A stretch of 32,000 nucleotides of DNA from Dickeya dadantii NCPPB 898 (GCF_000406145.1 NZ_AOOE01000043.1:30001-62000); one strand, 5' to 3'. Counted from the stretch's first letter, positions 3-20,916 are shown. Notes: a model not told the origin generated them from the sequence alone. Numbers and translations are program-made.

Positions 3-1187
3 GAAGGGTTTAAAGTCGCCGGCGATGACATTCTGCTGGATGTGATCCAGCTGTATGTGCTGCCGGCGTTGCAGGTCGCGCTGAAAAAAGCCGGCGTCAC
101 CAGCCCGGACAGCCTGATGACCCGGCTGTTCGGCAGCGAAGGCCGCATGGACGGCCAGCTGACGCTGCGCCAGCAGGTCACGCTGCAAATGTTCATTCCT
201 ATCGGTCAAGCGATTCTGGAAGCCTACGAACAGTTCGACCCGCTCGATCTGAACGCGGAAATCGACACCACATTCGGCGAAATGCTGCCGCAGGCGCCGA
301 CGCGCAAAGTACTGGAATACGTCAACAGCGAGATCCAGCGTGAATTGCCGGACGAGGAAACGCCGTTCGATATTCTGCAGGTGCCGCTGATTCTGCGTCT
401 TGGCAAGCTGCACAGCGAATTTCTGGCCAACCGCATGAGCATTACCCAGCACCTGCGGCTGATGTCGGAAGTGGTGTCGCTGTATGCCTGCGACGTGCTG
501 CTGCTGACCGGCCGTCCGTCCCGTTTTCCGGGTATTCAGGCGCTGTTCCGCCACCTGCAGCCGCTGCCGATTAACCGCATGATGTCGCTGGATGGCTATC
601 ACACCAGCGACTGGTATCCGTTTAACAAGCGCGGGCGTATCGAAAACCCGAAATCCACCGCCGCGGTGGGCGCGATGCTGTGCCTGCTGGCGCTGGATCT
701 GCGTCTGCCCGGTTTCTACTTCAAAGCCGGGGATTTCGAACCCTATTCCACCGTGCGCTACCTCGGTATGTTGGACAGCAGCCACACCCTCACCACCGAT
801 AACGTCTACTATAACGATATCGATCTGGATGACGCCGATTTCACGCTGGACGATCAGTCCGGTTTCGAAGTACGCGGCTCACTGTGCCTCGGCTTTCGCC
901 AGTTGGACAACGAACGCTGGCCCGCTTCACCGCTCTACTCGCTGTCGATCGTCGATCCGGAACTGGCCCGCAAGGTGGCCGGCGACAGCGTACTGCACGT
1001 GCGCCTGAAAGTGGTGCCGGGCGACGATAACCTCACGCCGGAACGCGTCGAGATCGCCGACGCGGTGCTAGGCTCCGGGCTCGCCATTTCGCCGCATCAG
1101 CTAAGGCTGAAACTCAACACCTTGTCCAGCACGGTTTCCGGCATGGCACATTACTGGATCGATAGCGGGAGCGTCTTCAAGAAATGA
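3..1187 (+). CDS. srfB: SrfB-family (putative virulence factor) protein, C-terminal ~395 aa; 5' end lies upstream of the window
   Basis: The reading frame is open from the window edge (frame 3), and the first in-frame Met at 42 is not the true start. The stop overlaps the next start (ATGA at 1184-1187). The motif DVLLLTGRPSRFPGIQALF (493-549) resembles the Hsp70/actin-fold adenosine motif (VLLVGGxxRIPxVQ). The family name rests on remembered srfABC architecture (about 1000 aa SrfB followed by about 800 aa SrfC), not on an alignment. Confidence 0.55.
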   Translation, partial: EGFKVAGDDILLDVIQLYVLPALQVALKKAGVTSPDSLMTRLFGSEGRMDGQLTLRQQVTLQMFIPIGQAILEAYEQFDPLDLNAEIDTTFGEMLPQAPTRKVLEYVNSEIQRELPDEETPFDILQVPLILRLGKLHSEFLANRMSITQHLRLMSEVVSLYACDVLLLTGRPSRFPGIQALFRHLQPLPINRMMSLDGYHTSDWYPFNKRGRIENPKSTAAVGAMLCLLALDLRLPGFYFKAGDFEPYSTVRYLGMLDSSHTLTTDNVYYNDIDLDDADFTLDDQSGFEVRGSLCLGFRQLDNERWPASPLYSLSIVDPELARKVAGDSVLHVRLKVVPGDDNLTPERVEIADAVLGSGLAISPHQLRLKLNTLSSTVSGMAHYWIDSGSVFKK

Positions 1188-3688
1188 AACCATTAACGCC
1201 CAAACAGCTGTCGAGCCGTCTCAGCCGTCAGTTACAGTCCGTTTCGCAAGGCGTGGATCAGGCGATCGCCTGGGTGGATGAAACCCGGCGCAACGTTCCC
1301 CGCCTGGATATGGAAGCCGATCGGCTTATCGTCAAGCTGCGGCGCTGTCGCAACAAGGCCCGCGGCCTGTCCGATTCGTCGTTAAAAGAGATCGCCATGG
1401 GCATGTTCGGGTTGGCTCAGGGCGGCAAAACTTATCTGCTGACCTCGCTGGCCGGTAACGAAAACGGACGAATTGAAACCTCTATCGGCGGCGTTACGTT
1501 GGATTACCAGAAAAACATCAATCCGGACAACCAGCAACCGGCCTTTGTCACCCGCTTTACCCGGCAGGCTGAAGGCAAAAACACCCCGAATCCGGTACAG
1601 GTCCAGTTGCTCAACGAGGCCGATATCGCCCGAATTATGGCCTATGCCTTCGTACTGGAAGACAGTCAGAACCCGGCGCCGGAGCTTGACGAACAGCATA
1701 TCGCCGAGCACCTGAAAACCCTGTCGTTGCACCGCCAGCAGGAAGCGGTGCCCGGGCTGGACGGCGATGACGTGGTCGCGTTGTGGGATTATCTGGTGCG
1801 CCACGACGCCCGGCGTCAAAAGCCGCTGGAACGCAAATTCTGGCCGCTGGCGGTGGAGCTGGCGCCGCACCTCAGCATCGACGACCGCGCCAGCCTGTTC
1901 TCGGTTCTGTGGGGCGAACAGTCGGAATACACTTCGCTCTACCGCCATTTCGCCCACACGCTGGAGCAATTGTCCGGCACCCGCAAGGTACTGGCGCCGA
2001 TCAGCCTGCTGGTGGATGAATCACTGCAACCCGACAGCGGTATTTTCAACGCCAACCTGTTCGACCGGCTCAATAGCCCTTCCGATCTCAGCGCGCAGGT
2101 GCGCCCCATCGTCAACGGCCGCGCGGCCAGAAATGTAGAGCTGTCGCTGGCGGAACTGCTCATGCTGGCGGCTGAAGTGCAAATTCCGCTGCTGTCACCG
2201 CCAAAGGAAACGTTGTTCGAACAGGTGGACCTGCTCGATTTTCCCGGTTTCAGCCTGCAGGACGAGCCGGAATTCGAGCCGGACGAGGATAACCCGGAGC
2301 GGCTGTTGCGCCTCAAGCCACACCCGTTGTCCCGTGCATTGCTGCGCGCCAAACGCGCCTATCTGCTGGAGCGTTATACCGACGATCAGGAAATGAATCT
2401 GCTGATGGTCTGTACCGCCGCCGCCTGCAAAGCGGACGTACGCCACGTCGGCCGGGCGCTGGATTTTTGGGTGCGTCATACCCAGGGTGAAAACCCGCAA
2501 GTCCGTAGTCGCCGCAAACCCGGCCTGATCTGGGCGGTGACCCGTCATGACCGGCGTTTCACCCACGGCTATAACAACGATGAAGCGGTACAGCGTTACG
2601 TGGGTAACCCCGGCGATGCCTGGGGCACCATGCTGGCGATGGACAAGCGCGGCATCAACAGGATGGCGGCCTGGCTGGACGCGGAGGTTCGCCGTGAAGT
2701 CAAACTGGGGCGCATCAACGAACAACTGAGCGAATTGCAGCGCGAGCTGTCCGATAACCTGCTTGGCAGTTGGTATCAGCCGGCCGGCGCCGATGACCCG
2801 GCGCACAAACAGCATATCGCCGAGTCGATGCTCAAAGCGTTGCAAACCCGAACCGGCGTGCACGGCGAACTGCTGGAACGGCTATTGCCTTCCCGCGATG
2901 AACTACGTCGGCTGTATCTGCAACAACAGGAACAGGCGCAACGCAACTTCGCGTCCTATCAGGAAGCGCAGGATACGGCGGTGCCGCTGGTCAGCTATGA
3001 ACCGTTTGGCGTCGGGATGGATATCGACCTGTTCAGCGATGACGCCGACCCGAGCGAAGAAGACGAAACTGTCGTCGCGCCGGCGCCGACCGAGGAAGAG
3101 CAAACCGAAAACCACAGCTATGAAGCGGAGTTCGCCCGTAATCTGTACCGGTATTGGATCAACCACTTGCGCAACCTACCGGAAAACGTCGCCATCATTG
3201 AATTACTGGGGATTAACCGCCCCACCATCGAAATGCTGGTGGAGGAACTGATTACGGCCAGCGTGCGGCTGAAGATTGACGATGAGCTGCAAACCATGCT
3301 GTTGGATTCCGGGCAACTGGGTATTAACCGGGAAAGCAAAGCGGATCGACAGGTTTCGCGCGCGCTCAACGTGCTCGGCGATTTCGTCGCCTGGCTAGGC
3401 TTTCAGCAGGTGCCCGAGGCCGGCCGACCGGACAGCCGCGTCAACAAAGGCAACAAGATCTTTGCCAAGCCGGAAAAGCAAACGGCCAACTTCGGCACCT
3501 CCCGACGGTTGACCAAACTGTCGGCGACGCCGGTCAACAATACCGCCTATTACATTTATGACTGGCTGATCGGCCTGAACGAGATGATTATCCAGAACGC
3601 CGGCTATGCGGCTGGGCGTGACATCAAACCCAAACAGCGCGAACGTCTGGGAACGATTCTGGGTCTGATCAAACCGACCGAAAGCTGA
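1184..3688 (+). CDS. srfC: SrfC-family large P-loop NTPase (putative virulence factor), 834 aa
   Basis: Translationally coupled to the upstream gene. Walker A GLAQGGKT (1406-1429), a DxxG-type motif VDLLDFPG (2224-2247) and a G4-like LIWAVTRHD (2525-2551). An acidic low-complexity linker (DDADPSEEDETVV...TEEEQTE) follows, and then a hairpin terminator. Confidence 0.55.
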   Translation: MKPLTPKQLSSRLSRQLQSVSQGVDQAIAWVDETRRNVPRLDMEADRLIVKLRRCRNKARGLSDSSLKEIAMGMFGLAQGGKTYLLTSLAGNENGRIETSIGGVTLDYQKNINPDNQQPAFVTRFTRQAEGKNTPNPVQVQLLNEADIARIMAYAFVLEDSQNPAPELDEQHIAEHLKTLSLHRQQEAVPGLDGDDVVALWDYLVRHDARRQKPLERKFWPLAVELAPHLSIDDRASLFSVLWGEQSEYTSLYRHFAHTLEQLSGTRKVLAPISLLVDESLQPDSGIFNANLFDRLNSPSDLSAQVRPIVNGRAARNVELSLAELLMLAAEVQIPLLSPPKETLFEQVDLLDFPGFSLQDEPEFEPDEDNPERLLRLKPHPLSRALLRAKRAYLLERYTDDQEMNLLMVCTAAACKADVRHVGRALDFWVRHTQGENPQVRSRRKPGLIWAVTRHDRRFTHGYNNDEAVQRYVGNPGDAWGTMLAMDKRGINRMAAWLDAEVRREVKLGRINEQLSELQRELSDNLLGSWYQPAGADDPAHKQHIAESMLKALQTRTGVHGELLERLLPSRDELRRLYLQQQEQAQRNFASYQEAQDTAVPLVSYEPFGVGMDIDLFSDDADPSEEDETVVAPAPTEEEQTENHSYEAEFARNLYRYWINHLRNLPENVAIIELLGINRPTIEMLVEELITASVRLKIDDELQTMLLDSGQLGINRESKADRQVSRALNVLGDFVAWLGFQQVPEAGRPDSRVNKGNKIFAKPEKQTANFGTSRRLTKLSATPVNNTAYYIYDWLIGLNEMIIQNAGYAAGRDIKPKQRERLGTILGLIKPTES

Positions 3689-3695
3689 CCCCTGC

Positions 3696-3720
3696 GGCGG
3701 AGCATTACGCTCCGCCCTTT
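3696..3720 (+). terminator. Rho-independent terminator after srfC-like gene
   Basis: Perfect 8-bp stem ggcggagc / gctccgcc (3696-3703, 3709-3716) with loop attac, followed by a short cttt tract. It lies 8 nt after the stop. Confidence 0.6.
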
Positions 3721-3942
3721 CAGCATAAAAGTTTACACAATCAAATAATTATGCTGCTTTCCTTATCCAAAATTTCGATAAAATCACGTTATAAATCAGG
3801 CTGGTCTTGCAAAAATACGACTCTCACGTCATAGTTTTACACGGGGTGTGCACTGCCGTACCGAATAGGTAACGAATACTTTTATTATCATGTTTTTTCT
3901 TTGATTCGCCCGGTTTAAAACAATATTGTCGATGTTAAAAAG

Positions 3943-3980
3943 TACTGTTGACGCTAAAAAATACTGTCAACGCTAAAAAA
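3943..3980. repeat. Two tandem 19-bp direct repeats, each ending in an A6 tract
   Basis: tactgttgacgctaaaaaa / tactgtcaacgctaaaaaa, 17/19 identical. The central hexamers GTTGAC and GTCAAC are reverse complements of each other. A third A-tract sits at 3937-3941, giving about 19 bp phasing. The repeats lie in an AT-rich region about 275 bp upstream of the 4256 start. Confidence 0.8.
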
Positions 3981-4255
3981 GGCACGCAGGCTACCCCGTT
4001 CTTTTTTCCACCATCATGACGACCGGACTGTTGCTCCTGCAAAGGAAAACAGAACGGCCCTTCTTCCAGGGATATCGGGTTGCAGTTATCCATTGGGTGT
4101 GTTCTGACACCTGTATTGGCATACCAGACTGCGGGTGATGTCGCCTTAGGCAACGTCGCCGAAAAACGATAGTGATCCCCGTTCCACGACGCCTGACACC
4201 GCTCAGACGCGCGGTTTTCTCTCAGCTGTTCACGACATGGCACAGGTAACACATC

Positions 4256-4714
4256 ATGAGTAACAGTAGTGAACCCGACACCGCCTTTGACGATTTTCTG
4301 ACCCTATCCGCCCTGCTTACCGGTTTCAGTCAGTTTGAACTGACCGGCACCGGACTGGCTCACGATTATTTCACCTGGCTGCAGCACAACGCCGCCGCAC
4401 CGTTCAAACAACTGCTGCACGACTTTGCGGCGCAACCGGATGATGACGCATTACGGCTCAACTGGCTGGAAGCCACGGTGCTGACATCGCTGACGCTCGG
4501 CCCGGTCGCCCGCAGCCTGCTGCGTTTATGGTACACCGGCCAGTGGGTGCCCATTTCTTCGAAGTCGGACGCCGCCGCCTGTTTTCTCAGCGACGCCGCC
4601 TGGCGCGAGGCGTTGATCTGGCAAGCCATCCACGCCCACCCGCAGGCGATCCGGCAGCAGGAATTCGGCGCCTGGGCCGAACCGCCCATTGCGGAGTGGA
4701 GAACGCGCGGATGA
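4256..4714 (+). CDS. Small (gamma-like) subunit of a FAD-dependent sugar/polyol dehydrogenase complex, 152 aa
   Basis: The stop overlaps the GMC flavoprotein start (ATGA at 4711-4714). The size and the N-terminal FLTLSALLTG...L..DYF..L pattern resemble FAD-sorbitol/gluconate dehydrogenase small subunits. No twin-arginine signal is visible at the N terminus. Confidence 0.55.
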   Translation: MSNSSEPDTAFDDFLTLSALLTGFSQFELTGTGLAHDYFTWLQHNAAAPFKQLLHDFAAQPDDDALRLNWLEATVLTSLTLGPVARSLLRLWYTGQWVPISSKSDAAACFLSDAAWREALIWQAIHAHPQAIRQQEFGAWAEPPIAEWRTRG

Positions 4715-6549
4715 ATCTCATCACCCCTCATCAGGCTGAGCAGACCGATTACGACGTGGTGATCGTCGGCGGCGGCATTGCCGGTTCGCTGATGGCAAAA
4801 ACCCTGACCCGCGGGGGAAAACGCTGCCTGATACTGGAGGCCGGCGACGGTGATAACCTGCATTACGCCGGATACCGGCATACGCTGCAGCGTTATCGCC
4901 AGCATCCGGGCAAAAACCATCAGGTATCCGGCCCACGTAACGTCAACGCGCCGGCGCCGCACGATACCGCCCTCCAGCCCCTGATGCCCGACGGCTATGA
5001 CGACCGCGGCTATCTGGTGCAACGTGGTCCGTTACCATTCAGTTCCACCTACTGCCGCCAGCTCGGCGGCACGTCGCTACAGTGGCTCGGCAGCGCCATG
5101 CGCATGCTGCCGGAAGATTTCGAATTGCAAAGCCGCTACGGTATCGGGCTGGACTGGCCGTTGCGCTACAACGATCTTGAACCCTGGTATCGGGCGGCGG
5201 AGTACGAACTGGGCGTCTCGGCCAATGTAGAGGAACAGGCGTATCTGGGAATCCGGTTTCCGCCGGATTATGTCTATCCGATGCAAGGTCTGCCCCCTGC
5301 CTGGGGCGATCGACAGCTGGCGCGCCGCCTCAACGGCATGACGGTTATGGAAGACGGACAGGCGACACCGTTGACCCTGCGCGGCACGCCGTCCGCGCGC
5401 AACGGCGTGCCGCACCCCGGTTACGAACACGGCCGCGGCTATCATCCTCGCGGCGCGGCAGGCAGCCCGCATCTCGGCCTGCGCTGCTCCGGCAATAGCT
5501 ATTGCACGCCGCTCTGCCCGACGCAGGCTCGCTACAACGCGTTGAAAACGCTGGAAGACGCCGATCCGGCATTGCTGGACGTCGTCACCTGTAGCGTAGC
5601 GCACAAGTTGCTGATCGACCCATCGACCGATGCCATCACCGGCGTTCAGTTTCGCCATTATGTGCATCAGGAAACGGCATTGCATCACCTGCATACCGTC
5701 AGCGCCCGACGCTATGTGCTGGCCGGCAACGCCATTGCCAATGCGGTGCTGTTGCTGGCGTCCGATGCCTGTAAAGGTAACGATCTGGTTGGGCGTCATC
5801 TGATGGATCACCCGGTACTGCCGGTCTGGGGCCGGGCCGACGCGCCCTTGTGGCCGATGCGCGGCCCGCTCGCCACTTCGGGGATTGAAGCCATGCGGGG
5901 CGGCCCGGCCCGCGCGCATCGCGCGGCCTATCGCATCGAGCTGAGCAACGACGGCTGGCGCTGGCCGGTCAACGCCTTATACCACGATATCGAACACCTG
6001 CTGGCGGAGCCGTTGTGCGGCGCCCGCTTACGCAGCCAAATGCGCGAACGGCTGTCGCGGCAATTCAGCGCCCGCTGCCTGGTGGAACAGTTGCCGGAAT
6101 ACAATAACCGGGTGACCATTCATCCTGACTACCGCGACGCGCTGGGCAATCATCGTCCGGTCATCCACTATGACCTGTCGCTGTACACCCGCACCGGCGT
6201 CGCGCGCGCCGGCAACGCTATGCGCCAGATTTGCCGGCACGCCGGCATTCGCGATCACAGTCATTACTCGCCCGACGACCCCGGCTACTTTACCTGTCAG
6301 GGGCAGCCGCTGGCGTTTGTCGGCGCCGGGCATATCGCCGGCACGCACTGTATGGGCAGCTCGCCCCATCATTCGGTGGTTGATCGCCAGCAACGCAGTT
6401 GGATTCATAAGAATCTCTATCTGGTGGGAGCCGGCAACATGGTCAGCATGGGAACGGCGCCGCCCACCCTGACGCTGGCGGCGTTGACGCTATGGGCCGC
6501 GCGCACAATTCTTTCCGAACTGGACAGAATGTGTGCCAGCACACGTTAA
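4711..6549 (+). CDS. GMC-family FAD oxidoreductase (gluconate 2-dehydrogenase / FAD-glucose dehydrogenase alpha-like), 612 aa
   Basis: The N-terminal Rossmann motif DVVIVGGGIAG carries GxGxxG at 4768-4785. The Cys-rich motif C-SGNSY-C-TPL-CP (5485-5520) matches the CxGNxxCxPxCP region of flavoprotein dehydrogenase subunits. I chose the start at 4711 (MNLITPHQ) rather than ORF-track 4528, because 4711 overlaps the upstream stop and places the FAD motif at residues 15-25. Confidence 0.8.
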   Translation: MNLITPHQAEQTDYDVVIVGGGIAGSLMAKTLTRGGKRCLILEAGDGDNLHYAGYRHTLQRYRQHPGKNHQVSGPRNVNAPAPHDTALQPLMPDGYDDRGYLVQRGPLPFSSTYCRQLGGTSLQWLGSAMRMLPEDFELQSRYGIGLDWPLRYNDLEPWYRAAEYELGVSANVEEQAYLGIRFPPDYVYPMQGLPPAWGDRQLARRLNGMTVMEDGQATPLTLRGTPSARNGVPHPGYEHGRGYHPRGAAGSPHLGLRCSGNSYCTPLCPTQARYNALKTLEDADPALLDVVTCSVAHKLLIDPSTDAITGVQFRHYVHQETALHHLHTVSARRYVLAGNAIANAVLLLASDACKGNDLVGRHLMDHPVLPVWGRADAPLWPMRGPLATSGIEAMRGGPARAHRAAYRIELSNDGWRWPVNALYHDIEHLLAEPLCGARLRSQMRERLSRQFSARCLVEQLPEYNNRVTIHPDYRDALGNHRPVIHYDLSLYTRTGVARAGNAMRQICRHAGIRDHSHYSPDDPGYFTCQGQPLAFVGAGHIAGTHCMGSSPHHSVVDRQQRSWIHKNLYLVGAGNMVSMGTAPPTLTLAALTLWAARTILSELDRMCASTR

Positions 6550-6664
6550 ACGCGAAAAAAGCGCTACAAAAGATGATGATATTCGGGTTTCATGCTACGA
6601 ATAAATAGATAAGACTAACTACACACTTCGTCACTGCCGCCACTGACTAAGACGGAATAACATC

Positions 6665-8221
6665 ATGAACTTAAACGAACACGCCACACACCAAGATTTG
6701 GATGCTATGTTCAGGGAAAAAGGCTACGTCAAATTAACCAGCCATAAGGATCTGGCGCACGAGTTAGACGATATCCGGGACTTATTGCAAAAAGCGATGG
6801 TGCTGGAACACGCGGTAATCCCCCCCTACCTTACAATGCTTTATACGATGAATGACGACATCGATCCGCGTGTCCCCGAGGTGATTCATTCCGTCGTGAT
6901 TGAAGAAATGCTGCATTTTGTCATGGTCGGCAACCTGCTGAATGCGGTGGGCGGCACGCCAAATATCAGCGGCCACGATTTTTTGCCCGATTACCCGGCC
7001 ACGCTGCCGTTCGGCATCGAAGATCTGGAAATTCAGCTACACCCGTTTTCTCAGCACGCCATACATCAGGCGATGCAAATCGAACACCCGAAATACGTGC
7101 GTCCGGACGTGGTAGCCAGCCATGTCTGCAGCGACATGTCGATCGGCGAATACTACGTCTATATCGAATCACGCCTGCGGGCGGCGGTGGAATCTTTCGG
7201 CGAAAAGGCCGTGTTCTGCGGCGACCCCACCCGCCAGATTGAGCCGGAGCAGTTCTGCCACGGTTCCTACGGCGCCGTCATTCCGGTGACCGATCTGGAC
7301 AGCGCGGTCGCCAGCCTGCGTCAGATTTGCGATCAGGGCGAAGGCTCGCCGCACAATATCTGGCAGGGCGAAGACAATGACGTCCCGCACTATTATCGCT
7401 TCAACGAAATCTACTGCGAGCGGCTGTACGCCCACGGCGACACCATCGCCAGCGGCCCGACCGGCGAACCGTTGACGATCGAATGGGACAAGGCCGTCAG
7501 AACCCACAGCGCGGCCAAAGTCAGCGACTATCCGGAAGGCGAGTTGCACAAGGCGATTGTGCGCTTCAACCGTCGCTACTGCGAATTGCTGGAAAACCTA
7601 CAGTTGGCGCTGTCCGGCCGCCCGTTAAAACTCACCCCGGCGGTGATGGCGATGGGCGCGCTGCGGGAGGATTTCCGGGCGATCGTCTCCCATCCGTTCC
7701 CCGGCGACAACGCCTACCGCGCGGCGCCGACGTTCGAGTATACCCCGCCGCCGCCGCCGCGTTTTCAGGCCAAGAGTCAGGCGGTCACGTTCTCCAACAA
7801 CCAGGCTACGCTGGAGAAACTCGGTCAGGCCTATGCCGCGGGCGACCTGCCGATGGCGCTCACCTGCCTGAGCGAACAGTTGGTGTGGGACATGACCGGC
7901 CCGGTGGATGTGCCTTATACCGGCGTGTTCTACGGCCACGAAGGTTTCTCCCGTTTCTGGTCGCTGATGAGCCAGACGGTAGAATTCAGCAGCGAAGTGG
8001 TGGAAAAAGTCTTCTTCAGCGACAATCAGGCAATGGCTTACGGCAGCCAGCAGGGGATCACCAAATCCACCCGCGTGCCTTACAGTTACGACTGGGCGAT
8101 ACGCTATGAGTTCACCGACGACCACCGTATCCGGCTGATGCGCAACTACTTCAACCCGATGCGTATTCAGGCCGCGCTGGCCGCTACGCCGCCGAAACCG
8201 CGCTCGTTCATCAACAAGTAA
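6665..8221 (+). CDS. Ferritin-like domain protein fused to a C-terminal NTF2/SnoaL-like domain, 518 aa
   Basis: The N-terminal motifs AMVLEHAVIPPYLTMLYT (about 6790-6845) and EEMLHFVMVGNLLNAVGG (from 6902) are typical of the ferritin-like (VioB N-terminal type) family. A PPPPP linker is at 7745-7759. The last ~130 aa (about 7787-8180) look like a SnoaL/NTF2-like domain. No CxxCH heme motif is present, and a strong terminator follows. Confidence 0.6.
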   Translation: MNLNEHATHQDLDAMFREKGYVKLTSHKDLAHELDDIRDLLQKAMVLEHAVIPPYLTMLYTMNDDIDPRVPEVIHSVVIEEMLHFVMVGNLLNAVGGTPNISGHDFLPDYPATLPFGIEDLEIQLHPFSQHAIHQAMQIEHPKYVRPDVVASHVCSDMSIGEYYVYIESRLRAAVESFGEKAVFCGDPTRQIEPEQFCHGSYGAVIPVTDLDSAVASLRQICDQGEGSPHNIWQGEDNDVPHYYRFNEIYCERLYAHGDTIASGPTGEPLTIEWDKAVRTHSAAKVSDYPEGELHKAIVRFNRRYCELLENLQLALSGRPLKLTPAVMAMGALREDFRAIVSHPFPGDNAYRAAPTFEYTPPPPPRFQAKSQAVTFSNNQATLEKLGQAYAAGDLPMALTCLSEQLVWDMTGPVDVPYTGVFYGHEGFSRFWSLMSQTVEFSSEVVEKVFFSDNQAMAYGSQQGITKSTRVPYSYDWAIRYEFTDDHRIRLMRNYFNPMRIQAALAATPPKPRSFINK

Positions 8222-8245
8222 CGCGCACGATTTCTTCTCTTTCCC

Positions 8246-8274
8246 GCACCGCCAGCCCGGCGGTGCTTTTTTTT
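8246..8274 (+). terminator. Rho-independent terminator after ferritin-like gene
   Basis: 8-bp stem gcaccgcc / ggcggtgc (8246-8253, 8259-8266) with loop agccc, followed by T8 (8267-8274). Confidence 0.85.
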
Positions 8275-8296
8275 CGCTTCACAGACTTTTTTCGCC

Positions 8297-9061
8297 TCAC
8301 AGACTGAAGAACGGCTCCACGATCTGCTGCACGTCGGGGATGGCGGTCGCCACATGCATACCGCCCACCTCATAACTTCCGCGATATTTCACCACCAGCC
8401 CGGCTTCCGTACAGATCACCACCCCGGCGGCGATATCCCAGATGCTGGTGTTTTTCTCCACGTAACCGTCAGTAAACCCCAACGCGGCAAACCCCAGTCC
8501 GACAGTAGCGCAGCGATAGCGCGCCACCGCCCAGCCTTCATCACGCAGGTAGCCGTCCAGCATCGCCACTTCCGCCGCCGCCCACTTATTACTTTCCCCC
8601 AGCGCCACCAGCCGAACCTCGCTGAACGGCACCTGACGGCGATACGGCATCCCGTTACGCCATACGCCGCAGCCTATCGCCGCCGACAGCGTCAGGTTCA
8701 ACATCGGCAACGCAACGGTGCCGACCATCGCCAGCCCGTTTTCGACATACCCGATCGAAATGCCCCACAGCGGCAAACCGCGCAAAAAGTTGGTGGTGCC
8801 GTCTATCGGGTCGATGGCCCAGAAACTATCGCCGGCTTCGCCGCCCATTTCTTCGCCCAGAATAGCGTCCTGCGGAAACGCCTCCCGCAGACGGTCGCGG
8901 ATCAACTGCTCGACCTGCCGGTCCGCATCCGACACAAAATCATTGGCGGATTTCTGTTCCACCACCACGCTGTCACGCCGGGCAAACAACTGCCTTGCCA
9001 GCAACGCCGCTTCCTCCATGACCGTGTTGGCGGTCTCAAAGCGCAACTGCAAATCAGACAT
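8297..9061 (-). CDS. Inositol monophosphatase family phosphatase, 254 aa
   Basis: Family motifs are present: LGEEMG, WAIDPIDGTTNF and WDIAAG. A GGAGG Shine-Dalgarno lies 7 nt upstream of the ATG. It is the last gene of the minus-strand operon. Confidence 0.85.
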   Translation of the reverse strand: MSDLQLRFETANTVMEEAALLARQLFARRDSVVVEQKSANDFVSDADRQVEQLIRDRLREAFPQDAILGEEMGGEAGDSFWAIDPIDGTTNFLRGLPLWGISIGYVENGLAMVGTVALPMLNLTLSAAIGCGVWRNGMPYRRQVPFSEVRLVALGESNKWAAAEVAMLDGYLRDEGWAVARYRCATVGLGFAALGFTDGYVEKNTSIWDIAAGVVICTEAGLVVKYRGSYEVGGMHVATAIPDVQQIVEPFFSL

Positions 9062-9071
9062 TATATCCTCC

Positions 9072-9156
9072 GGTTATCAACCCACTTTGGCTCTCACCCC
9101 AGTTTGGTTCTCACCCCAGCTTGGTTCTCACCCCAGCTTGGTTATCAACCCAGCAA
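9072..9156. repeat. Five tandem copies of a 17-bp unit (GGTTCTCACCCCAGCTT) filling the GDPD/IMPase intergenic spacer
   Basis: The units are 9072-9088 ggttatcaacccacttt, 9089-9105 ggctctcaccccagttt, 9106-9122 and 9123-9139 ggttctcaccccagctt (identical), and 9140-9156 ggttatcaacccagcaa. The last unit contains the GDPD stop codon (9145-9147), and the first abuts the IMPase Shine-Dalgarno. Confidence 0.95.
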
Positions 9157-9903
9157 ATCGGGAATATCAGACAGGATCGTCTGGGCGCCATTATCGAGGA
9201 AGCGCCGGGCCTGAGCGGCATCATTGACGACTGCCACCGCGTATTCGATATCGCTGTCCGCCAGGATGTGCTGGGCCTCGTCATCCAGCAGCTCCGACAG
9301 GCAGTGCAAAATCTGGCAATGGGTTTCCTGCAACAACGCCACCGGGCGCCTGGGCGGCACCACCACGGCAAACGCCCGCGGTACATCCGGCATCAGCCGC
9401 GCCGCCGCCTGAATGGAACGAACGGAAAAACTCGACAGAAACAGCCGCTCGCGGTTGGCGGGCCACATTGATTTCAGTACGCCCAGCGCCACCTCCGCCG
9501 TTTCCACGTCGTCGCCTGCGGTCGGTTTCAGTTCCAGCTGCAATCCCATATCCAGCTCCAGCACGCATGCAATCAGCTCCTGCAGCGTCGGGATGGTTAC
9601 CCCGGCGAACGCGTCGCCGAATTGCGCGCGCGCCTCCAGCTGGCGAATGTCCGCCAGCGTCAGGCCGGCGACCAGACCGCGCCCATTGGTGGTGCGATCC
9701 ACCCGATCATCATGGATGATCACCGGCTGGCGATCCCGCGTCAGTTTGACATCCACCTCCAGCCACTTTGCCCCCAGTTGCGCCGCCTTACGCATGGCAA
9801 CCAGCGTATTCTCCGGCGCCAGCGCCGAGGCGCCGCGGTGGGCGATTAATGCATCATTCACCACGCGGTGGTGACGAAGGTGATCGGTTATCACATCAGA
9901 CAT
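9145..9903 (-). CDS. Glycerophosphodiester phosphodiesterase (GDPD/UgpQ-like), 252 aa
   Basis: Catalytic motifs are present: IAHRGASALAPENT and EVDVKLTRDRQPVIIHDD..DRTTNG. An AGGGAA Shine-Dalgarno lies upstream of the ATG at 9903. Confidence 0.85.
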   Translation of the reverse strand: MSDVITDHLRHHRVVNDALIAHRGASALAPENTLVAMRKAAQLGAKWLEVDVKLTRDRQPVIIHDDRVDRTTNGRGLVAGLTLADIRQLEARAQFGDAFAGVTIPTLQELIACVLELDMGLQLELKPTAGDDVETAEVALGVLKSMWPANRERLFLSSFSVRSIQAAARLMPDVPRAFAVVVPPRRPVALLQETHCQILHCLSELLDDEAQHILADSDIEYAVAVVNDAAQARRFLDNGAQTILSDIPDLLG

Positions 9904-10062
9904 AATGGTTTCCCTGGTGTTTCAATACATCGGTGTTGAGTAAGAAAATATGTTGAATTAAAAATGCGTTTGGCCTTGCCCGCGTCGGATACAACAAACG
10001 GTTTTTAAACGTCTGTTGTTCAAACGTCATCACGTCAAGCGTCATAACAAGGCCGCGCGATG

Positions 10063-11196
10063 TCATTTCAGCATCACGTTTTGAATAAACTGCTTTTTGA
10101 TTTCGTCGCCCAATGGCTTGGCCGCCCAGGCGAAACTGCGCGACCGATCCAGCGAATCCGTCGCCTGAGCGCCGTCGTCCGCCGGCGTCAGCAGCGCCGT
10201 ACCGAACTGCGAGTGAAAGCGCCGTTGCGTGTCCGGCTGCGTCAGCCAGTGGATGAACAGTAATGCCGCCGCCTTATGTTTGGCGTTGGCCGGGATCCCC
10301 ACCACATTGCCGCCGCCCGGCATGCCAAAATCAGGAAGGTAGAATTTGATATCCGGCGACACTTCGCCTTTGTGTTGCAGCGACAGCACCAAATCCTCCC
10401 ATGAAGCGGCGAGCTTAAATTCGCCGGCATTCAGTCGGGTGATGCTGTCGGCATTGGACGCGCTGATCACCATGCTGCCTTTGTAACGGTTGAACCAGCT
10501 CCAGGAGGGCGCAAGCCGCTGCAACACCGCCGGCGCGGCATTGCCGTCACGGTAGTTGACGTCGGTGACCAACGCCCGGGTAACGGATTCGATAAACGCC
10601 GGACCGGAGCCGCCATTCTCTACGTTAAAGGTGAATTCACCGGGGTTTTTCACCAAAAACTGTTCGAACTGCGGCAGCGAATGCGGCAGATCGGCCGTGT
10701 CGATGCGCGCAGAATTGTAGGCGATCACGGTCTGATTGCCCCAGAACGCCACCGCGTAGCCCTGGGTATCAACCCCTTCGATCTGGTAGCTTAGTTTGTC
10801 GCCGGCCGGCAATCGGGCTTTGAGCGGCCCCCAGAACAGTTTGGGTCCGTTAAGTAACCCGAACTGGCTGCCGCCCACCGAGATCACGTCGATATCGCCC
10901 TGCTCACGATGCTGCTCCGCCAGCAGTTTGTTGATGCTGGCCATCGCCTCGCCATCGGGAATGGTGACCCGAATGCCATACTGTTTCTCGAACGCCTTCA
11001 CCTCTTCGCGCAATCGGTCCTGATAGTACCAGTTGAACCAGACAAGCTGACCTTCCTGACGCGCCTGCGCTTCCACCGCCTGCCAGGACAGGCTAGACAA
11101 ATCCGGCGTCTGGGCCTGCACCCGCAGTAACGGCAGCAACAGTACCAGCAACGCCGCCAGTCGCCCTATTTTTGACAGACTGAGTCGAATGAACAT
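10063..11196 (-). CDS. ABC transporter periplasmic substrate-binding protein (PotD/family-1-like)
   Basis: The signal peptide MFIRLSLSKIGRLAALLVLLLPLLRVQAQ follows the Met at 11196, which has a GGGGA Shine-Dalgarno about 8 nt upstream. The ORF track extends to 11229, a possible alternative start. The gene sits directly downstream of two permease genes. Confidence 0.75.
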   Translation of the reverse strand: MFIRLSLSKIGRLAALLVLLLPLLRVQAQTPDLSSLSWQAVEAQARQEGQLVWFNWYYQDRLREEVKAFEKQYGIRVTIPDGEAMASINKLLAEQHREQGDIDVISVGGSQFGLLNGPKLFWGPLKARLPAGDKLSYQIEGVDTQGYAVAFWGNQTVIAYNSARIDTADLPHSLPQFEQFLVKNPGEFTFNVENGGSGPAFIESVTRALVTDVNYRDGNAAPAVLQRLAPSWSWFNRYKGSMVISASNADSITRLNAGEFKLAASWEDLVLSLQHKGEVSPDIKFYLPDFGMPGGGNVVGIPANAKHKAAALLFIHWLTQPDTQRRFHSQFGTALLTPADDGAQATDSLDRSRSFAWAAKPLGDEIKKQFIQNVMLK

Positions 11197-11231
11197 GCAA
11201 GATTCCCCTGAATGATTAAGCGGCATCATCG

Positions 11232-12065
11232 TTATCCCTTATTGACGAACGCAGACGCCGGAACATGTCTGAGACAGCGCTCCATCAGCAGCATCAACAA
11301 CACGTTAGGCACCACCAGAATCAGCGACACCACCGCCGCATTAGGCCGAATGAAGTTATAACCCAGGTACGAATACAGAATGGTCGGCACGGTGATAAAG
11401 TCGGGCGCGCCCACAATGTAGGAAACGGAAAACTCTTCGATGGACAGAATGAACACCATGATTATCGCCGCCAGCGCCCCGGATTGAAGCGCCGGCCAGT
11501 AGGCCACCCGGAAGATTTCCCGCCGGGATGCGCCCAGGTTGCGCGCCGCATCCACCAGATCCTGCCGGACCTGACTGAAAGAGACGCTCAGAATGCGGAT
11601 GGCGTACGGCAGAAACAGCACCGTATGACCGAGGAAAATCCCCATGAACCGCGAGTACACCCCCAGGCGCATCAGCAATGAGGAGAAGAACACCGCCACC
11701 ACGAACCCCGGCAACACGATCGGCAGCAGCGTCAGCGCCTGTGCCAGCCCTTTGCCGGGAAACGACAGGCGGCCAAAGGCATAAGCGGTCGGCATCGCCA
11801 GCAGCAGGCAGGTCAGCGTCACCATCGGCGCCAGCAGATAGCTGTGCAACAACGCATCGGGCAGCGAGGTGTTGTTCCATAATTCACGCCAGCGCTGCAG
11901 CGACAACACCGGCGGGAAGACATCCGGGTACGCCCACGGGTGAGACGGATCCACCAATGACCACAGCACCGCCATGGCAAACGGCAGAATCAACCACACG
12001 GTCCCCAACAGCAGGATCACCACCACCAGCAGGCGGTTGAGTCGGTCAATCACGGTCTGCTGCAT
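11232..12065 (-). CDS. ABC transporter permease, 277 aa
   Basis: A multi-pass hydrophobic protein with the EAA-type loop DAARNLGASRREIFRVAYWPAL. It lies 3 nt downstream of the preceding permease. Confidence 0.85.
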   Translation of the reverse strand: MQQTVIDRLNRLLVVVILLLGTVWLILPFAMAVLWSLVDPSHPWAYPDVFPPVLSLQRWRELWNNTSLPDALLHSYLLAPMVTLTCLLLAMPTAYAFGRLSFPGKGLAQALTLLPIVLPGFVVAVFFSSLLMRLGVYSRFMGIFLGHTVLFLPYAIRILSVSFSQVRQDLVDAARNLGASRREIFRVAYWPALQSGALAAIIMVFILSIEEFSVSYIVGAPDFITVPTILYSYLGYNFIRPNAAVVSLILVVPNVLLMLLMERCLRHVPASAFVNKG

Positions 12066-12068
12066 CGG

Positions 12069-12923
12069 TTATTTCCCTATTCTGTGCACGGCCGCGCGGG
12101 CCGCGACCGCCAACAACCCGGCCCCCGCCAGCGACAACAACATCAGCATCACCGCCACCACCGCCGCCTGATTCCAGCCTTCAGCGCCCGACTGCTGAAC
12201 CCGCAGCATCAGTTGCGACATGGAGTTGAGGTTGACCGGCCCCGCCACCGACTGAAAGGAAAAATCACCGGCGGCGCCGATAAAGATCAGCATCATCGCC
12301 GTTTGCAACGCCCGCAGCGTCAGCGGCAGCACGATGCGACGAAAACGAACCCAGGCGCCGGCGCCAAGATTGCGGGCGGCGTCCAGCACCGTGTCGCCGA
12401 TAGCCTGAACCGAACCACTCAGCAACAGCAACGCAAACGGCATCTGTTTCCAGACCTGCAACAGAATCACGCCGATGCCGTTGGCGTCGTTTTGCATACG
12501 AATCGGCCGCTCCGTCAGCCCCAGTCGTAGCATGGCGACGTTGAGAAACCCCTGATAAGAGATGAAATTGACGAACAGAAACGCCGCGGTCAGCCCCGGC
12601 ACCAGCAGCGGCGCTTTCAGCAACGCACGCAGGGTGACGGCCCCCGGAAACGGCTTGCGCAGCCAAATCGCCAGCGGGTAGGCCAGCGCCGCCGACAGCA
12701 GCGCGCTAACCAGCGCAATGCGCGCCGAGTAGAAAAAAGAGCGCCACAGCTGTTCGTCGGTCAGCATGGTTTGCCAGAAACGCAGCGATAACCCGCTGTC
12801 GCCGGCAAAATTAAAGAACCCCAGCGACTGGGAAAACGCCATCCCCAACACTGCGCCCATCGCCAGCACGATGATCCCCAGCCCCGGCAGCAGCATCAGG
12901 TAAGCCATCAGCGACGATCTCAT
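12069..12923 (-). CDS. ABC transporter permease, 284 aa
   Basis: A hydrophobic protein with the EAA loop DAARNLGAGAWVRFRRIVLPL. Its start overlaps the ATPase stop (ATGA at 12920-12923). Confidence 0.85.
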   Translation of the reverse strand: MRSSLMAYLMLLPGLGIIVLAMGAVLGMAFSQSLGFFNFAGDSGLSLRFWQTMLTDEQLWRSFFYSARIALVSALLSAALAYPLAIWLRKPFPGAVTLRALLKAPLLVPGLTAAFLFVNFISYQGFLNVAMLRLGLTERPIRMQNDANGIGVILLQVWKQMPFALLLLSGSVQAIGDTVLDAARNLGAGAWVRFRRIVLPLTLRALQTAMMLIFIGAAGDFSFQSVAGPVNLNSMSQLMLRVQQSGAEGWNQAAVVAVMLMLLSLAGAGLLAVAARAAVHRIGK

Positions 12924-14002
12924 GCCGCCACCGCTTCGCGCAAAAACTGCAACGCGCCGGGCGGCAGTGAAAAATAATAGGTTTCCCCTTCCAGCAGCGG
13001 CTGATAACCCAGCAGTTGAATCCGGTAATGAACGCTGTCGCTATCCTGATGACAACCTTCGATATCCGTCAGGTTGCCGAGAAAGGTCTGGCGTTTAACC
13101 CGCAGCGAGAAGATATTCTGCCCCAGCGCGGGCAACGACAGCAGGCAGGCGTTTTCCGGCCGCCAGCACAGATAGACCCGCTGCTGAGCCGGCGGCTCGT
13201 CCGACGCAACCACGAATTCACCCAGCGCGGTGTCGACCCGATACTGCCCGGCGTCCCCATCCCGCGCGGTAACCGTGCCCACCATGATGTTGGCGGTGCC
13301 GATAAAATCGGCCACAAAGCGGTTAACCGGCCGGTGATAAATCTCCTGCGGGGTTCCGGACTGAATTACGCTGCCGCCGTGCATCACGATCACCTTGTCG
13401 GACATCGCCAGCGCCTCCGCCTGGTCGTGGGTCACATAAACCGCGGTGAAACCGTGCTTACGCTGTAAGGTACGGATCTGCAACCGCAGTTGTTCACGCA
13501 GCCGAGCATCCAGATTGGACAGCGGTTCGTCGAACAGCATCACATCCGGGCGCACCGCCATTGAGCGCGCCAGCGCCACCCGCTGCTGCTGACCACCGGA
13601 TAGCTGGGTGGGTAATTTATCCAGATGCCCGGCCATCGCTACGGTCAGCGCGGTTTCCACCACCCGATGACTCAACGCCTCACGTGGTACTTTGCGCTGC
13701 TGTAACCCAAAGGCGATGTTTTCCGATACCGTCAGGTGGGGAAACAGCGCATAAGACTGAAAGCACATCGCCGTATTGCGTTTTTCCGGCTCCAGGCCGT
13801 TCATTTCCCGGCCGCCGATGCGAATGCGCCCGCCGTCCAGCGGGACAAAACCGGCAATGGCGCGCAGCAGCGTGGTTTTGCCGCACCCGGATGGCCCCAG
13901 CAGAGTGACGAACTCCCCCTCGTTAACGTCAAACGACACCCCTCTAAGGACAGGAACGTCACCGTAAGCCACACTGGCGCGTTCCACTTCCAGTCTACTC
14001 AT
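12920..14002 (-). CDS. ABC transporter ATP-binding protein (PotA/UgpC-like with C-terminal regulatory domain)
   Basis: Walker A GPSGCGKTT, signature LSGGQQQR and Walker B MLFDEPLS are present. I chose the ATG at 14002 (MSRLEVERAS, GGGAGA Shine-Dalgarno 8 nt upstream) over the TTG at 14026 used by the ORF track. Confidence 0.9.
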   Translation of the reverse strand: MSRLEVERASVAYGDVPVLRGVSFDVNEGEFVTLLGPSGCGKTTLLRAIAGFVPLDGGRIRIGGREMNGLEPEKRNTAMCFQSYALFPHLTVSENIAFGLQQRKVPREALSHRVVETALTVAMAGHLDKLPTQLSGGQQQRVALARSMAVRPDVMLFDEPLSNLDARLREQLRLQIRTLQRKHGFTAVYVTHDQAEALAMSDKVIVMHGGSVIQSGTPQEIYHRPVNRFVADFIGTANIMVGTVTARDGDAGQYRVDTALGEFVVASDEPPAQQRVYLCWRPENACLLSLPALGQNIFSLRVKRQTFLGNLTDIEGCHQDSDSVHYRIQLLGYQPLLEGETYYFSLPPGALQFLREAVAA

Positions 14003-14351
14003 TACATGGTCTCCCGTGAGTCGCAAGGCATCATGTTCAGCAAGGTGAAAACGTCATTAATTCAACTTATAATGCAGTATGCATAATAATAATGACAGAT
14101 ATGTTGCAAGAATGTAATGGGAAAATCATGAATCAATCTATTGATATAAAAATAAATATCTAAATTTTCACTGTGACTATCTTTATTTCCGGGTTGCATA
14201 TCATGCATGGCGCAATTATCATTCATAATGTTTAATAATTAACATGATATACACTAGCGACAATGCCCCGCAGGTGCTGGTTTAACTGCACGATTTGGCG
14301 ATATAAAAAGGAACTGCACACCATGAACACTCGCGCTGGAACCTGCGTCTG

Positions 14352-15476: not shown

Positions 15477-15532
15477 CGCCCGTTTGGCGTAAGCCAACTG
15501 CAAACCAGAGATTATGAGTGACGGCGTCACGT

Positions 15533-16426: not shown

Positions 16427-16465
16427 GCTTCAGCCCGCCTTTGTATACCTAACGACTGTTTATGC

Positions 16466-16484
16466 ACCGAACCTATCGTTCGGT
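16466..16484. promoter_or_regulatory. Candidate LTTR operator: perfect 7-5-7 palindrome ACCGAAC-CTATC-GTTCGGT
   Basis: Read directly in the LysR/padC divergent intergenic region, 40 bp from the LysR start and 110 bp from the padC start. LTTR sites are typically dyads in this position. No binding data exist. Confidence 0.35.
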
Positions 16485-16593
16485 TCATCACCTCAATTCA
16501 TCTAATTATCGAATTAATTAGCGCTAAAAACAGCGTTATTAATCAACTTAATCCGCTTTTATACTCCAGATAAGTCAACAGAAGGAAAACAGT

Positions 16594-17100: not shown

Positions 17101-17108
17101 GTCCCCCC

Positions 17109-17137
17109 ACGGCGGCCCGTCCGGTCCGCCGTTTTTT
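17109..17137 (+). terminator. Rho-independent terminator after padC
   Basis: Stem acggcgg / ccgccgt (17109-17115, 17126-17132) followed by a T-run at 17133-17137. Confidence 0.7.
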
Positions 17138-18613: not shown

Positions 18614-18653
18614 CGTCTCGTTCAATCCACCCCAAACAATCCATCAAAACAAA

Positions 18654-18682: not shown

Positions 18683-18705
18683 CTTGGTGATACCGAAACG
18701 CCGGC

Positions 18706-20892: not shown

Positions 20893-20916
20893 AAGCAGTC
20901 GGGCAAGGAAATAGGA

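Follow-up and report, generated by a model that had tools for sequence, protein, structure and literature searches.

A ferritin-like protein as the putative partner of a cytochrome-less GMC flavoprotein in Dickeya dadantii and in a conserved bacterial gene module

Complexes of the flavin adenine dinucleotide (FAD)-dependent glucose dehydrogenase (GDH) type are textbook periplasmic, cytochrome-linked enzymes and form the basis of direct-electron-transfer glucose sensors. Within a 32,000-nt stretch of the genome of Dickeya dadantii NCPPB 898 (hereafter the window; coordinates are counted from its start and refer to the plus strand unless stated otherwise), three consecutive genes encode a small-subunit-like protein, a GMC flavoprotein and, where a cytochrome would be expected, a ferritin-like protein fused to an NTF2-like domain. 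The question raised by this locus is which partner such a flavoprotein could have and, specifically, whether the ferritin-like protein could be that partner. We find that the trio is a conserved module and not a chance neighborhood, and that the replacement of the cytochrome by the ferritin-like protein as the partner of the predicted 3Fe-4S cluster is the reading that the findings support best.

The small-subunit gene (4256..4714; 152 amino acids, aa) and the GMC flavoprotein gene (4711..6549; 612 aa) are translationally coupled, the stop codon of the former and the start codon of the latter overlapping in an ATGA (CGCGGATGAATC). An in-frame TAA at 4247–4249, 9 nt before the ATG, excludes a longer N-terminus of the small protein. 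The ferritin-like/NTF2 gene (6665..8221; 518 aa) follows after an intergenic spacer of 115 bp (6550..6664), in which no terminator-like site was found, and precedes an intrinsic terminator (8246..8274) that consists of an 8-bp GC-rich stem (hairpin at 8246–8266) and T8. The heme-binding motif CxxCH was found in none of the open reading frames (ORFs) of at least 60 aa across the entire window, and nothing resembling a redox partner was recognized among its remaining genes. Neither a Sec-like leader nor a twin-arginine (RR) leader of the twin-arginine translocation (Tat) type was found at the three N-termini by inspection and from the start of the FAD-SLDH match of the small protein, without a dedicated signal-peptide predictor. 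The original prediction for this locus had described a 152-aa gene coupled by ATGA to a 612-aa GMC gene, both products lacking Sec or Tat signals, the two GMC motifs discussed below, a gap of 115 bp without a terminator, a T8 terminator after the third gene and no CxxCH gene following the pair, and it proved accurate in all these respects. Between Dickeya species, the ratios of nonsynonymous to synonymous substitution rates (dN/dS) are 0.09 for the small-subunit gene, 0.06–0.07 for the GMC gene and 0.04 for the ferritin-like/NTF2 gene, which indicates that all three are real genes under strong purifying selection. Across the region that could be aligned, a D. dadantii database entry and the 518-aa protein show 100% identity, and the latter is 91–96% identical to the orthologs from D. 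chrysanthemi, D. undicola and D. oryzae.

The 518-aa protein consists of an N-terminal ferritin-like domain (6665..7744), a PPPPP linker (residues 361–365; 7745..7759) and a C-terminal SnoaL/NTF2-like domain (7826..8134). The ferritin-like part matches Pfam family PF12902 over residues 41–250 (E 1.3e-53; 182.6 bits vs a cut-off of 22.3), and a profile search connects it to CC_0557 of Caulobacter (PDB, 3hl1; E 9e-14), the only PF12902 member with a solved structure. In an AlphaFold2 (AF2) model with a predicted local distance difference test score (pLDDT) of 89.9, the two domains (87–90 for the ferritin-like one) are joined by a disordered linker whose length varies among the homologs and whose pLDDT is low at residues 366–375. 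Because Foldseek searches with the full-length model were dominated by NTF2 matches, they were repeated with the ferritin-like domain alone, for which 3hl1 was the only significant hit (E 6e-9; template-modeling score TMt 0.71–0.74). At the sequence level, a weak match of helices A–B to ferritin and bacterioferritin (E 0.006–0.04) was obtained, and Pfam, NCBIfam and PDB sequence searches gave no match beyond it to classical di-iron enzymes such as the hydroxylases of soluble di-iron monooxygenases, rubrerythrin, Mn catalase, RNR R2 or AOX. The protein thus belongs inside the ferritin-like superfamily, as profile and structure searches agree and as the original prediction had proposed, at a considerable distance from every characterized di-iron enzyme. 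The E and EExxH motifs that had been noticed in it are present as E48 and E80-E81-x-x-H84, together with the PPPPP linker and the SnoaL/NTF2 C-terminus. Six residues (E48, E81, H84, E140, E226 and H242) are invariant in 43 homologs of 28–91% identity, are also aligned in 3hl1 and are the candidate ligands of a di-metal site, four Glu and two His being the classical di-iron ligand set. The C-terminal domain matches SnoaL_2 at residues 388–490 (E 6e-7; 30.4 bits vs a cut-off of 27) and 3fgy among PDB sequences (E 6e-7); Foldseek aligned it to NTF2-like proteins including ketosteroid isomerase and TerC (TMt 0.84–0.89) and to limonene epoxide hydrolase structures (TMt 0.67–0.82), and many of its Tyr, Asp, His and Arg residues are invariant among the homologs. 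The PF12902 family is large, with 6479 clusters at 50% identity (E ≤1e-3), of which 1687 have E ≤1e-30, and we found no characterized member other than the distantly related VioB-type enzymes.

When each GTDB species was represented by a single genome and scanned, the 518-aa protein proved to have 452 relatives, of which the best 80 loci were analyzed by tblastn with the small and GMC proteins of the window. A GMC homolog ends directly before the ferritin-like gene in 68 of the 77 loci that had enough upstream sequence to be evaluated, and 61–64 of these GMC-linked loci also contain a homolog of the small subunit, which precedes the GMC gene or else immediately follows the ferritin-like gene. 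The loci represent at least seven phyla, covering Gamma-, Beta- and Alphaproteobacteria, Actinomycetota, Bacteroidota, Cyanobacteria, Chloroflexota, Acidobacteriota and Myxococcota as well as a metagenome-assembled genome (MAG) from Melainabacteria. In Saccharothrix, the only actinobacterial locus with genes called, consecutive genes overlap by 4 bp (GMC, 8079–10004; ferritin-like, 10001–11113; small subunit, 11110–11619), and several loci carry tandem duplicates in the order small-GMC-ferritin-GMC-ferritin-small. ORFs with multiple CxxCH motifs (at least two) are absent from the 80 loci (0 of 1131 ORFs). The trio is therefore a conserved module; the linkage in 68 of 77 loci, together with the family-wide absence of Tat signals and cytochromes, indicates that the cytochrome-less, Tat-less, ferritin-like-linked arrangement is a property of the whole clade and not of the window alone. 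Conserved linkage, the absence of which the original prediction had named in advance as a reason to abandon it, is thus found across phyla, with overlapping genes and, as described below, gene fusions. It is very probable that the family forms a functional three-protein unit.

The GMC protein matches GMC_oxred_N and GMC_oxred_C in Pfam. Among proteins of solved structure, the FAD-GDH alpha subunit of Burkholderia cepacia (BcGDH; 6a2u, E 6e-67) is its best relative and the large subunit of the Gluconobacter fructose dehydrogenase (FDH; 7w2j, E 2e-59) the next; both alignments span almost the entire length. The GxGxxG FAD-binding motif is located at G20–G25 (4768..4785) and the motif C259-x5-C265-x3-C269-P270 at 5485..5520, both exactly as had been predicted. 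In the alignment to 6a2u, the three cysteines coincide with Cys212, Cys218 and Cys222 of BcGDH, which in the crystal structure bind a surface 3Fe-4S cluster (PMC6719666), and are the predicted cluster ligands of the Dickeya protein. The same structure (PMC6719666) reveals that the small subunit packs beside the cluster, that Cys213 forms a disulfide to this gamma subunit, that His105 is covalently linked to FAD, and that His476 and Asn519 are the catalytic pair; the disulfide cysteine corresponds to Ser260 in Dickeya. Of approximately 90 GMC matches linked to ferritin-like genes, nearly all keep the pattern RCxGNxxCxP[IL]CPxQA, the two exceptions being a frameshifted copy from a MAG and a misaligned match. 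When the functional positions of BcGDH were mapped onto approximately 90 family GMC matches, the catalytic His, H541 in the window (6331..6333), proved to be universal among those scored.

The small protein matches PF12318 (FAD-SLDH) with E 4.7e-4 and 20.9 bits, under the cut-off of 24.2, and the match covers profile positions 31–142; since it starts at position 31, the signal part is missing from the small protein. Seven of 19 family members match PF12318 individually (best E 3.5e-5), and a profile built from the 19 matches residues 46–135 of the FDH small subunit (7w2j_B; E 0.01), a region that begins past the Tat signal of that protein. Pairwise phmmer comparison of the small subunit with the PDB returned only noise, and the family profile was required. 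The homologs from the 80 loci start 5–25 residues ahead of a conserved LSxxLTGF motif, and an RR motif is absent from all of them, as it is from the Dickeya protein. The small protein, encoded beside the GMC protein as gamma is beside alpha, is thus a Tat-less and remote homolog of the "hitchhiker" gamma/FdhS subunit.

Natural fusions connect the components in both combinations. The ferritin-like protein and the small subunit form a single ORF in Sorangium sp. So ce375 (L062, 426–1997) and are also fused in two independent database clusters (P0064 and P0071). A 922-aa protein (P0157) joins a GMC part that is 40% identical to the window GMC and retains the cysteine motif to a ferritin-like part, and in a MAG (L072, 7216–9999) the GMC frame reads through into the ferritin-like one. 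Fusions both ways argue for a physical complex and, given that the small subunit sits beside the 3Fe-4S cluster in BcGDH, a ferritin-like domain fused to it would be located near the cluster. Other PF12902 proteins are fused to CDGSH [2Fe-2S] and Fer4_19 domains (P0025, P0030), so that the PF12902 domain has repeatedly been paired with Fe-S electron carriers; in yet other family members, an SRPBCC or VOC domain occupies the C-terminal position that is taken by NTF2 in the window protein. The diversity of PF12902 fusion partners is, in general, very large: examples (P0025, P0030, P0150, P0091, P0097, P0109, P0132, P0140) include CDGSH with Fer4_19, animal heme peroxidase, PLD, endonuclease I, SRPBCC polyketide cyclase and VOC/glyoxalase domains, and in several proteins of 820–1070 aa, PF12902 is C-terminal, behind a region of about 500–650 aa without a Pfam match.

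Taking the homologies, the absent export signals and cytochromes, the linkage, the fusions and the purifying selection as the observations to be accounted for, we infer complex formation, metal content, the direction of electron flow, substrate and product along the following lines. The GMC flavoprotein, carrying FAD and a surface 3Fe-4S cluster, would be held together with the Tat-less homolog of the hitchhiker subunit, and the PF12902 ferritin-like protein would take the place that the membrane triheme cytochrome c has in the periplasmic FAD-GDH, FDH and sorbitol dehydrogenase complexes as the partner of this pair. The flavoprotein would oxidize an alcohol or a sugar-like substrate, and electrons would pass from FADH2 via the 3Fe-4S cluster to a carboxylate- and His-bridged di-metal site (E48, E81/H84, E140, E226, H242), which would reduce O2 or H2O2 or would activate O2 to oxygenate a small molecule that the fused NTF2 domain would help to bind. 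We put at roughly even the chances that the Dickeya trio is a reduced copy of a widespread, uncharacterized cytoplasmic three-component enzyme module with this electron path, and we consider it just as evenly balanced whether the 3Fe-4S cluster has its redox acceptor in the ferritin-like subunit. It is a tentative suggestion, somewhat less likely than that, that the phylum-spanning cytoplasmic heterotrimers constitute oxidases or oxygenases of a new, NAD(P)H-independent class, whose two electrons would come from an alcohol or sugar substrate and would travel directly through Fe-S to an O2-activating di-iron centre.

The genomic surroundings of the module in other bacteria offer hints at its chemistry. 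Among the best 80 of the 452 relatives, the closest full-length (NTF2-fused) ones come from Serratia, Balneatrix, Parachitinimonas, Calothrix and the Melainabacteria MAG. In these relatives, the module is part of a conserved operon of 7–8 genes, seen in Serratia fonticola, Balneatrix alpica and metagenomes (L081, 5938–15815; L083, 5936–16885; L085, 2269–12651), that encode the small subunit, GMC1, GMC2, the ferritin/NTF2 protein, an ADC-like protein of about 290 aa, a third GMC, in some cases UbiX, and UbiD; the ADC-like protein is fused to the ferritin/NTF2 protein in forms of 824–840 aa. This operon looks like an uncharacterized pathway that would join alcohol oxidation with decarboxylation dependent on prenylated flavin mononucleotide (prFMN), and an unsaturated or aromatic acid may be its substrate. 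The accessory genes found in Actinomycetota, Acidobacteriota, Chloroflexota, Cyanobacteria and others encode a TMEM175 channel, two xylose-isomerase-like TIM barrels, hydrolases of the GH15 trehalase-like and GH63/MGH1-like kinds, and a 317-aa protein that matches nothing in Pfam; in Bacteroidota loci, an ABM monooxygenase is encoded. These contexts point to small-molecule metabolism, probably of glycosides in some phyla, and seem more compatible with an oxygenase or oxidase than with a protein that only drains electrons. As a separate observation, the protein of about 317 aa ("unk317") accompanies the module in 17 loci from several phyla (including L031, L033, L036, L037, L047, L051, L053, L055, L056, L062, L063, L068, L071, L074, L075 and L078) and carries an N-terminal GxWxGxG-like motif, which we take to be typical of nitrobindin/lipocalin-like barrels.

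Within the Pectobacteriaceae, the module is undergoing reduction, from 7–8 genes in the Serratia-type operon to three in Dickeya and fewer in Musicola, Lonsdalea and strain C52. The Dickeya GMC is orthologous to GMC1 (59% identity, vs 45% to GMC2), and the Dickeya trio lacks GMC2, the ADC-like gene, GMC3 and UbiD/X. At the same site downstream of srfABC, Musicola keenii (L091, 7744–9000) has lost all of the GMC gene except roughly its final 40 codons; it keeps a small-subunit gene that has diverged (161-aa ORF, 42% identity) and a ferritin/NTF2 gene that is intact (83% identity), and is a natural intermediate in the loss of the small/GMC pair; in Lonsdalea species and in the Pectobacteriaceae strain C52, only the ferritin/NTF2 gene is left at the locus. 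In the Dickeya lineage, then, the ferritin-like/NTF2 protein seems to represent the core of the module, indispensable and with the function under selection; the GMC pair, by contrast, may have become an altered, optional electron donor.

Several observations weigh against the electron path proposed above, some of them for the family as a whole and others for Dickeya in particular. In the AF2 model, E140, E226 and H242 are located at helix ends, not in mid-helix as in classical di-iron bundles, so that, with three of the six candidate ligands in such positions, the di-metal site is best regarded as putative. The next-best Foldseek hits of the ferritin-like domain (mini-bacterioferritin, ferritin, Dps and Mn catalase) have E ≥0.1, and no characterized di-iron enzyme is close. 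Serratia-type operons encode two GMCs per ferritin-like protein, which implies that the stoichiometry is not simply 1:1. The window GMC retains H541 and departs from BcGDH at two flavoenzyme positions that are normally invariant. The position of the catalytic Asn519 is occupied by P584 (6460..6462), a Dickeya-specific substitution, in the sequence GTAPPTLT common to three Dickeya species, where the remaining family GMCs scored all read G[TS][SA]N.... The position of the flavin-linking His105 is occupied by Q124 (5080..5082); Gln is found there in the window and in D. undicola, and D. oryzae has His like the rest of the family GMCs scored. The ferritin/NTF2 gene is under purifying selection in Lonsdalea (dN/dS of about 0.1) with no adjacent GMC gene and is intact in strain C52 and in Musicola, where the GMC gene is missing or nearly deleted, respectively; the protein can thus work without this donor. 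The spacer 6550–6664 is 94–98% identical among three Dickeya species, whose flanking synonymous sites differ by 35–60%, and is far more conserved than the upstream intergenic region (76–85%). The 5' part of the spacer (AAACNNGANAAAANCNNTACAAAA) also precedes the Lonsdalea ortholog, where the GMC gene is absent, and the spacer has no Rfam match. This conservation suggests separate transcription of the third gene: the spacer is probably its promoter/operator, and it could alternatively be an RNA element.

These points modify the original prediction, which had envisaged a self-contained soluble oxidase or oxygenase with a di-iron protein replacing the cytochrome. What we find is a conserved, predicted cytoplasmic and probably physically associated trio that lacks Tat signals and cytochromes and has a ferritin-like partner; "self-contained" is doubtful in Dickeya because of P584 and Q124, the loss of the GMC gene in relatives and the conserved spacer. 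Passage of electrons from FAD through Fe-S to di-iron is plausible for the family and, in Dickeya, may be degenerate.

Three other explanations of the linkage deserve consideration. The one that survives best, although we consider it unlikely, is that the proteins are neighbors in a pathway: the GMC pair would pass its electrons to O2, quinone or a soluble carrier, and the ferritin-like/NTF2 protein, with electrons from elsewhere, would act separately on whatever GMC produces, for instance cleaving it oxidatively, hydroxylating it or isomerizing it. The co-variation of accessory enzymes (TIM barrels, GH15 and GH63-like hydrolases; ABM monooxygenase; ADC-like protein, third GMC and UbiD/UbiX) would be expected of such a pathway, and so would the survival of the ferritin-like/NTF2 gene alone in Lonsdalea and strain C52, the fusion of PF12902 to small-molecule-binding folds (SRPBCC, VOC, NTF2) in the same C-terminal position, and the separate SnoaL_2 gene that adjoins a GMC-less PF12902-CDGSH protein. 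However, fusion of the ferritin-like domain to a small subunit that is not catalytic is poorly explained by pathway order, the surface 3Fe-4S motif is strictly kept even though a gene for a cytochrome or another acceptor is absent, and the 4-bp overlaps, together with GMC/ferritin-like pairs that are duplicated in tandem as units, likewise tell against this explanation.

An explanation specific to this locus, which we regard as improbable, is that the small/GMC pair of Dickeya is a crippled remnant and that only the ferritin-like/NTF2 protein is functional, expressed from its own promoter in a role unrelated to GMC. The replacement of the otherwise invariant catalytic Asn by P584 and of the flavinylation His by Q124, the near-complete loss of the GMC gene in Musicola (about 40 final codons left, beside a diverged small subunit at 42% identity), the loss of both genes in Lonsdalea and C52, the conserved spacer with its motif common to Lonsdalea, and the lack of GMC2, the ADC-like gene, GMC3 and UbiD/X relative to Serratia all fit such decay. 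Against decay, both genes of the pair are intact and of equal length in three Dickeya species and evolve under strong purifying selection (dN/dS 0.06–0.09 at dS up to 1.4), so they are not pseudogenes; neither the FAD motif nor the Fe-S cysteines nor the catalytic His has been lost, and no terminator separates the pair from the third gene.

Least likely of the three, and in our view quite doubtful, is that the ferritin-like protein is a rubrerythrin-like or Mn-catalase-like di-metal peroxidase or catalase that removes H2O2 formed by the flavoprotein and O2, with electrons possibly drawn from the 3Fe-4S cluster. The ferritin-like superfamily does include rubrerythrins and Mn catalases, the weak Foldseek matches are to bacterioferritin, Dps and Mn catalase, and the PF12902 domain is also found in VioB (a weak TIGR04492 match) and presumably in RebD and StaD, all three of which we take to act downstream of H2O2-producing flavin amino-acid oxidases; RebD is reported to act as a catalase. 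An animal-heme-peroxidase domain is fused to PF12902 in one protein. A reported precedent for coupling a dehydrogenase to H2O2 reduction is a hydrogenase-rubrerythrin chimera (PMC11926857). Such scavenging leaves the highly conserved fused NTF2, SRPBCC and VOC domains unexplained, Lonsdalea keeps the protein without a flavoprotein, a rubredoxin domain is absent from the protein, and its sequence and structure do not resemble rubrerythrin or Mn catalase significantly. A role in iron storage or Fe-S assembly can be dismissed, given that the domain of about 360 aa is multi-helical like 3hl1, is not a cage-forming ferritin and is fused to enzyme-like domains.

With regard to the surroundings of the trio in the window, the three genes are co-directional and lie downstream of srfB/srfC (42–3688), adjoining srfABC. 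The AT-rich intergenic region of 567 bp between the srfC stop codon and the ATG at 4256 (3689..4255), which is 76–85% identical to its counterparts in D. oryzae and D. undicola, is the presumed promoter region of the small/GMC pair; a scan with the sigma-70 consensus found no promoter match for the locus, this region included. The best Fur-box candidate in the two intergenic regions has 7 mismatches in 19, so that iron regulation is unsupported, and an Rfam scan of 3600–8400 gave chance-level matches only. Upstream of the small-subunit gene, at 3943–3980, there is a perfect-register tandem direct repeat of 19 nt (TACTGTTGACGCTAAAAAA / TACTGTCAACGCTAAAAAA), for which a pattern search was negative in D. 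undicola, D. oryzae, Musicola and Lonsdalea. A 105-aa ORF with a GTG start on the minus strand (3935–4252), antisense within the same region, is probably spurious. The other genes of the window encode an inositol phosphatase, a glycerophosphodiester phosphodiesterase (GDPD), an ABC transporter, ROK and LysR regulators, a phosphotransferase system EIIC component (PTS EIIC), two methyl-accepting chemotaxis proteins (MCPs), SodC, and the products of ogt, fnr, uspE and pntAB. Between the last four and the ferritin-like gene lies a block of about 16 kb (8297–24900), which comprises the inositol monophosphatase, GDPD, the sugar-type ABC transporter, the two regulators, PTS EIIC, the MCPs (one with a FIST domain) and the periplasmic Cu/Zn superoxide dismutase. 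In Lonsdalea, ogt, fnr, uspE and pntAB come after the ferritin-like gene with one small reverse-strand ORF between; the phosphatase, GDPD and ABC transporter of the block are also found in Musicola and strain C52.

A full-text literature search, which covered few papers in subscription journals, found no description of the combination of a GMC flavoprotein and a ferritin-like protein, in agreement with the original remark that it is uncharacterized, and the family-level arrangement would be a cytoplasmic branch of FAD-GDH-type enzymes that we have not found described elsewhere. If the proposed electron path is correct, PF12902, a family of thousands of clusters represented by one orphan crystal structure and by a domain shared with VioB, would gain its first assigned function, or at least a first functional handle; the class would be a substrate-driven analog of multicomponent di-iron monooxygenases; the small subunit would be shown to have a structural role independent of Tat export; and the Dickeya/Musicola/Lonsdalea series would amount to a natural dissection of the dispensable parts. 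More generally, the module could reveal a new route by which the oxidation of a substrate is linked, independently of NAD(P)H, to reactions of O2 or H2O2. Its interest is mainly at the family level: the Dickeya locus is reduced and atypical, and a poorer experimental model than the Serratia or actinobacterial versions, and the association with glycoside hydrolases and TIM barrels (Actinomycetota and others) and with UbiD/UbiX (Gammaproteobacteria) provides starting points for finding substrates.

How, then, does the module compare with known systems? VioB, RebD and StaD are iminophenyl-pyruvate dimer or chromopyrrolic acid synthases, and some homologs of the 518-aa protein are labeled "iminophenyl-pyruvate dimer synthase domain" proteins in UniRef. 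The PF12902-type domain is indeed common to VioB and the window protein, but the match to TIGR04492 (VioB) covers residues 76–248 only and scores 33.9 bits vs a cut-off of 1250; membership in this group was rejected on that score and on length, the VioB/RebD/StaD proteins being heme proteins of about 1000 aa, and no tryptophan-pathway genes are nearby in the window. With CC_0557 of Caulobacter, the window protein shares family, fold and the aligned, conserved Glu/His motifs LExxTIPxY, EMLH, IExP, DQGEG and H; unlike the window protein, this structural-genomics orphan lacks an NTF2 domain. The proposed logic of electrons moving from flavin through Fe-S to a di-iron site and on to O2 or H2O2 resembles that of di-iron monooxygenases of the soluble methane monooxygenase (sMMO) type, where a reductase with FAD and [2Fe-2S] supplies a di-iron hydroxylase, of rubrerythrin and of flavodiiron oxidoreductases, and is comparable to that of the hydrogenase-rubrerythrin chimera. 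Unlike in these systems, the electron source would be an alcohol or sugar oxidized by the GMC protein and not NAD(P)H or H2, and the 518-aa protein has no sequence relationship or close structural relationship to the multicomponent di-iron monooxygenases.

The closest parallels lie on the flavoprotein side. AceDH of Methylacidiphilum (GmcA/GmcB, [Cu-4Fe-4S]) is likewise a GMC enzyme of two subunits, one of them small, between which a metal cluster is located, and it shows that the scaffold of a GMC and a small subunit is chemically versatile (bioRxiv 10.64898/2026.06.11.731722); unlike the module, it is Tat-exported and periplasmic, has another cluster and motif, and no ferritin-like partner has been described for it. 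With BcGDH (6a2u), FDH (7w2j) and the sorbitol and gluconate 2-dehydrogenases, the module has in common a GMC protein with FAD and the aligned three-Cys motif and, as in complexes of the BcGDH/FDH type, the small, helical partner is encoded immediately upstream in translational coupling and the catalytic His is kept. The differences are that the module has neither a Tat signal on the small subunit nor a gene for a triheme cytochrome c, is predicted to be cytoplasmic and has a PF12902 ferritin-like protein encoded as the partner; relative to BcGDH, S260 replaces the disulfide Cys, and, in Dickeya, P584 stands in for Asn and, in the window protein, Q124 for His. Since the fold of the alpha subunit, the 3Fe-4S motif and the small subunit are all recognizable and the Tat signal and the cytochrome are missing, the module would be expected to work like the FAD-dependent dehydrogenase complexes without being a member of them.

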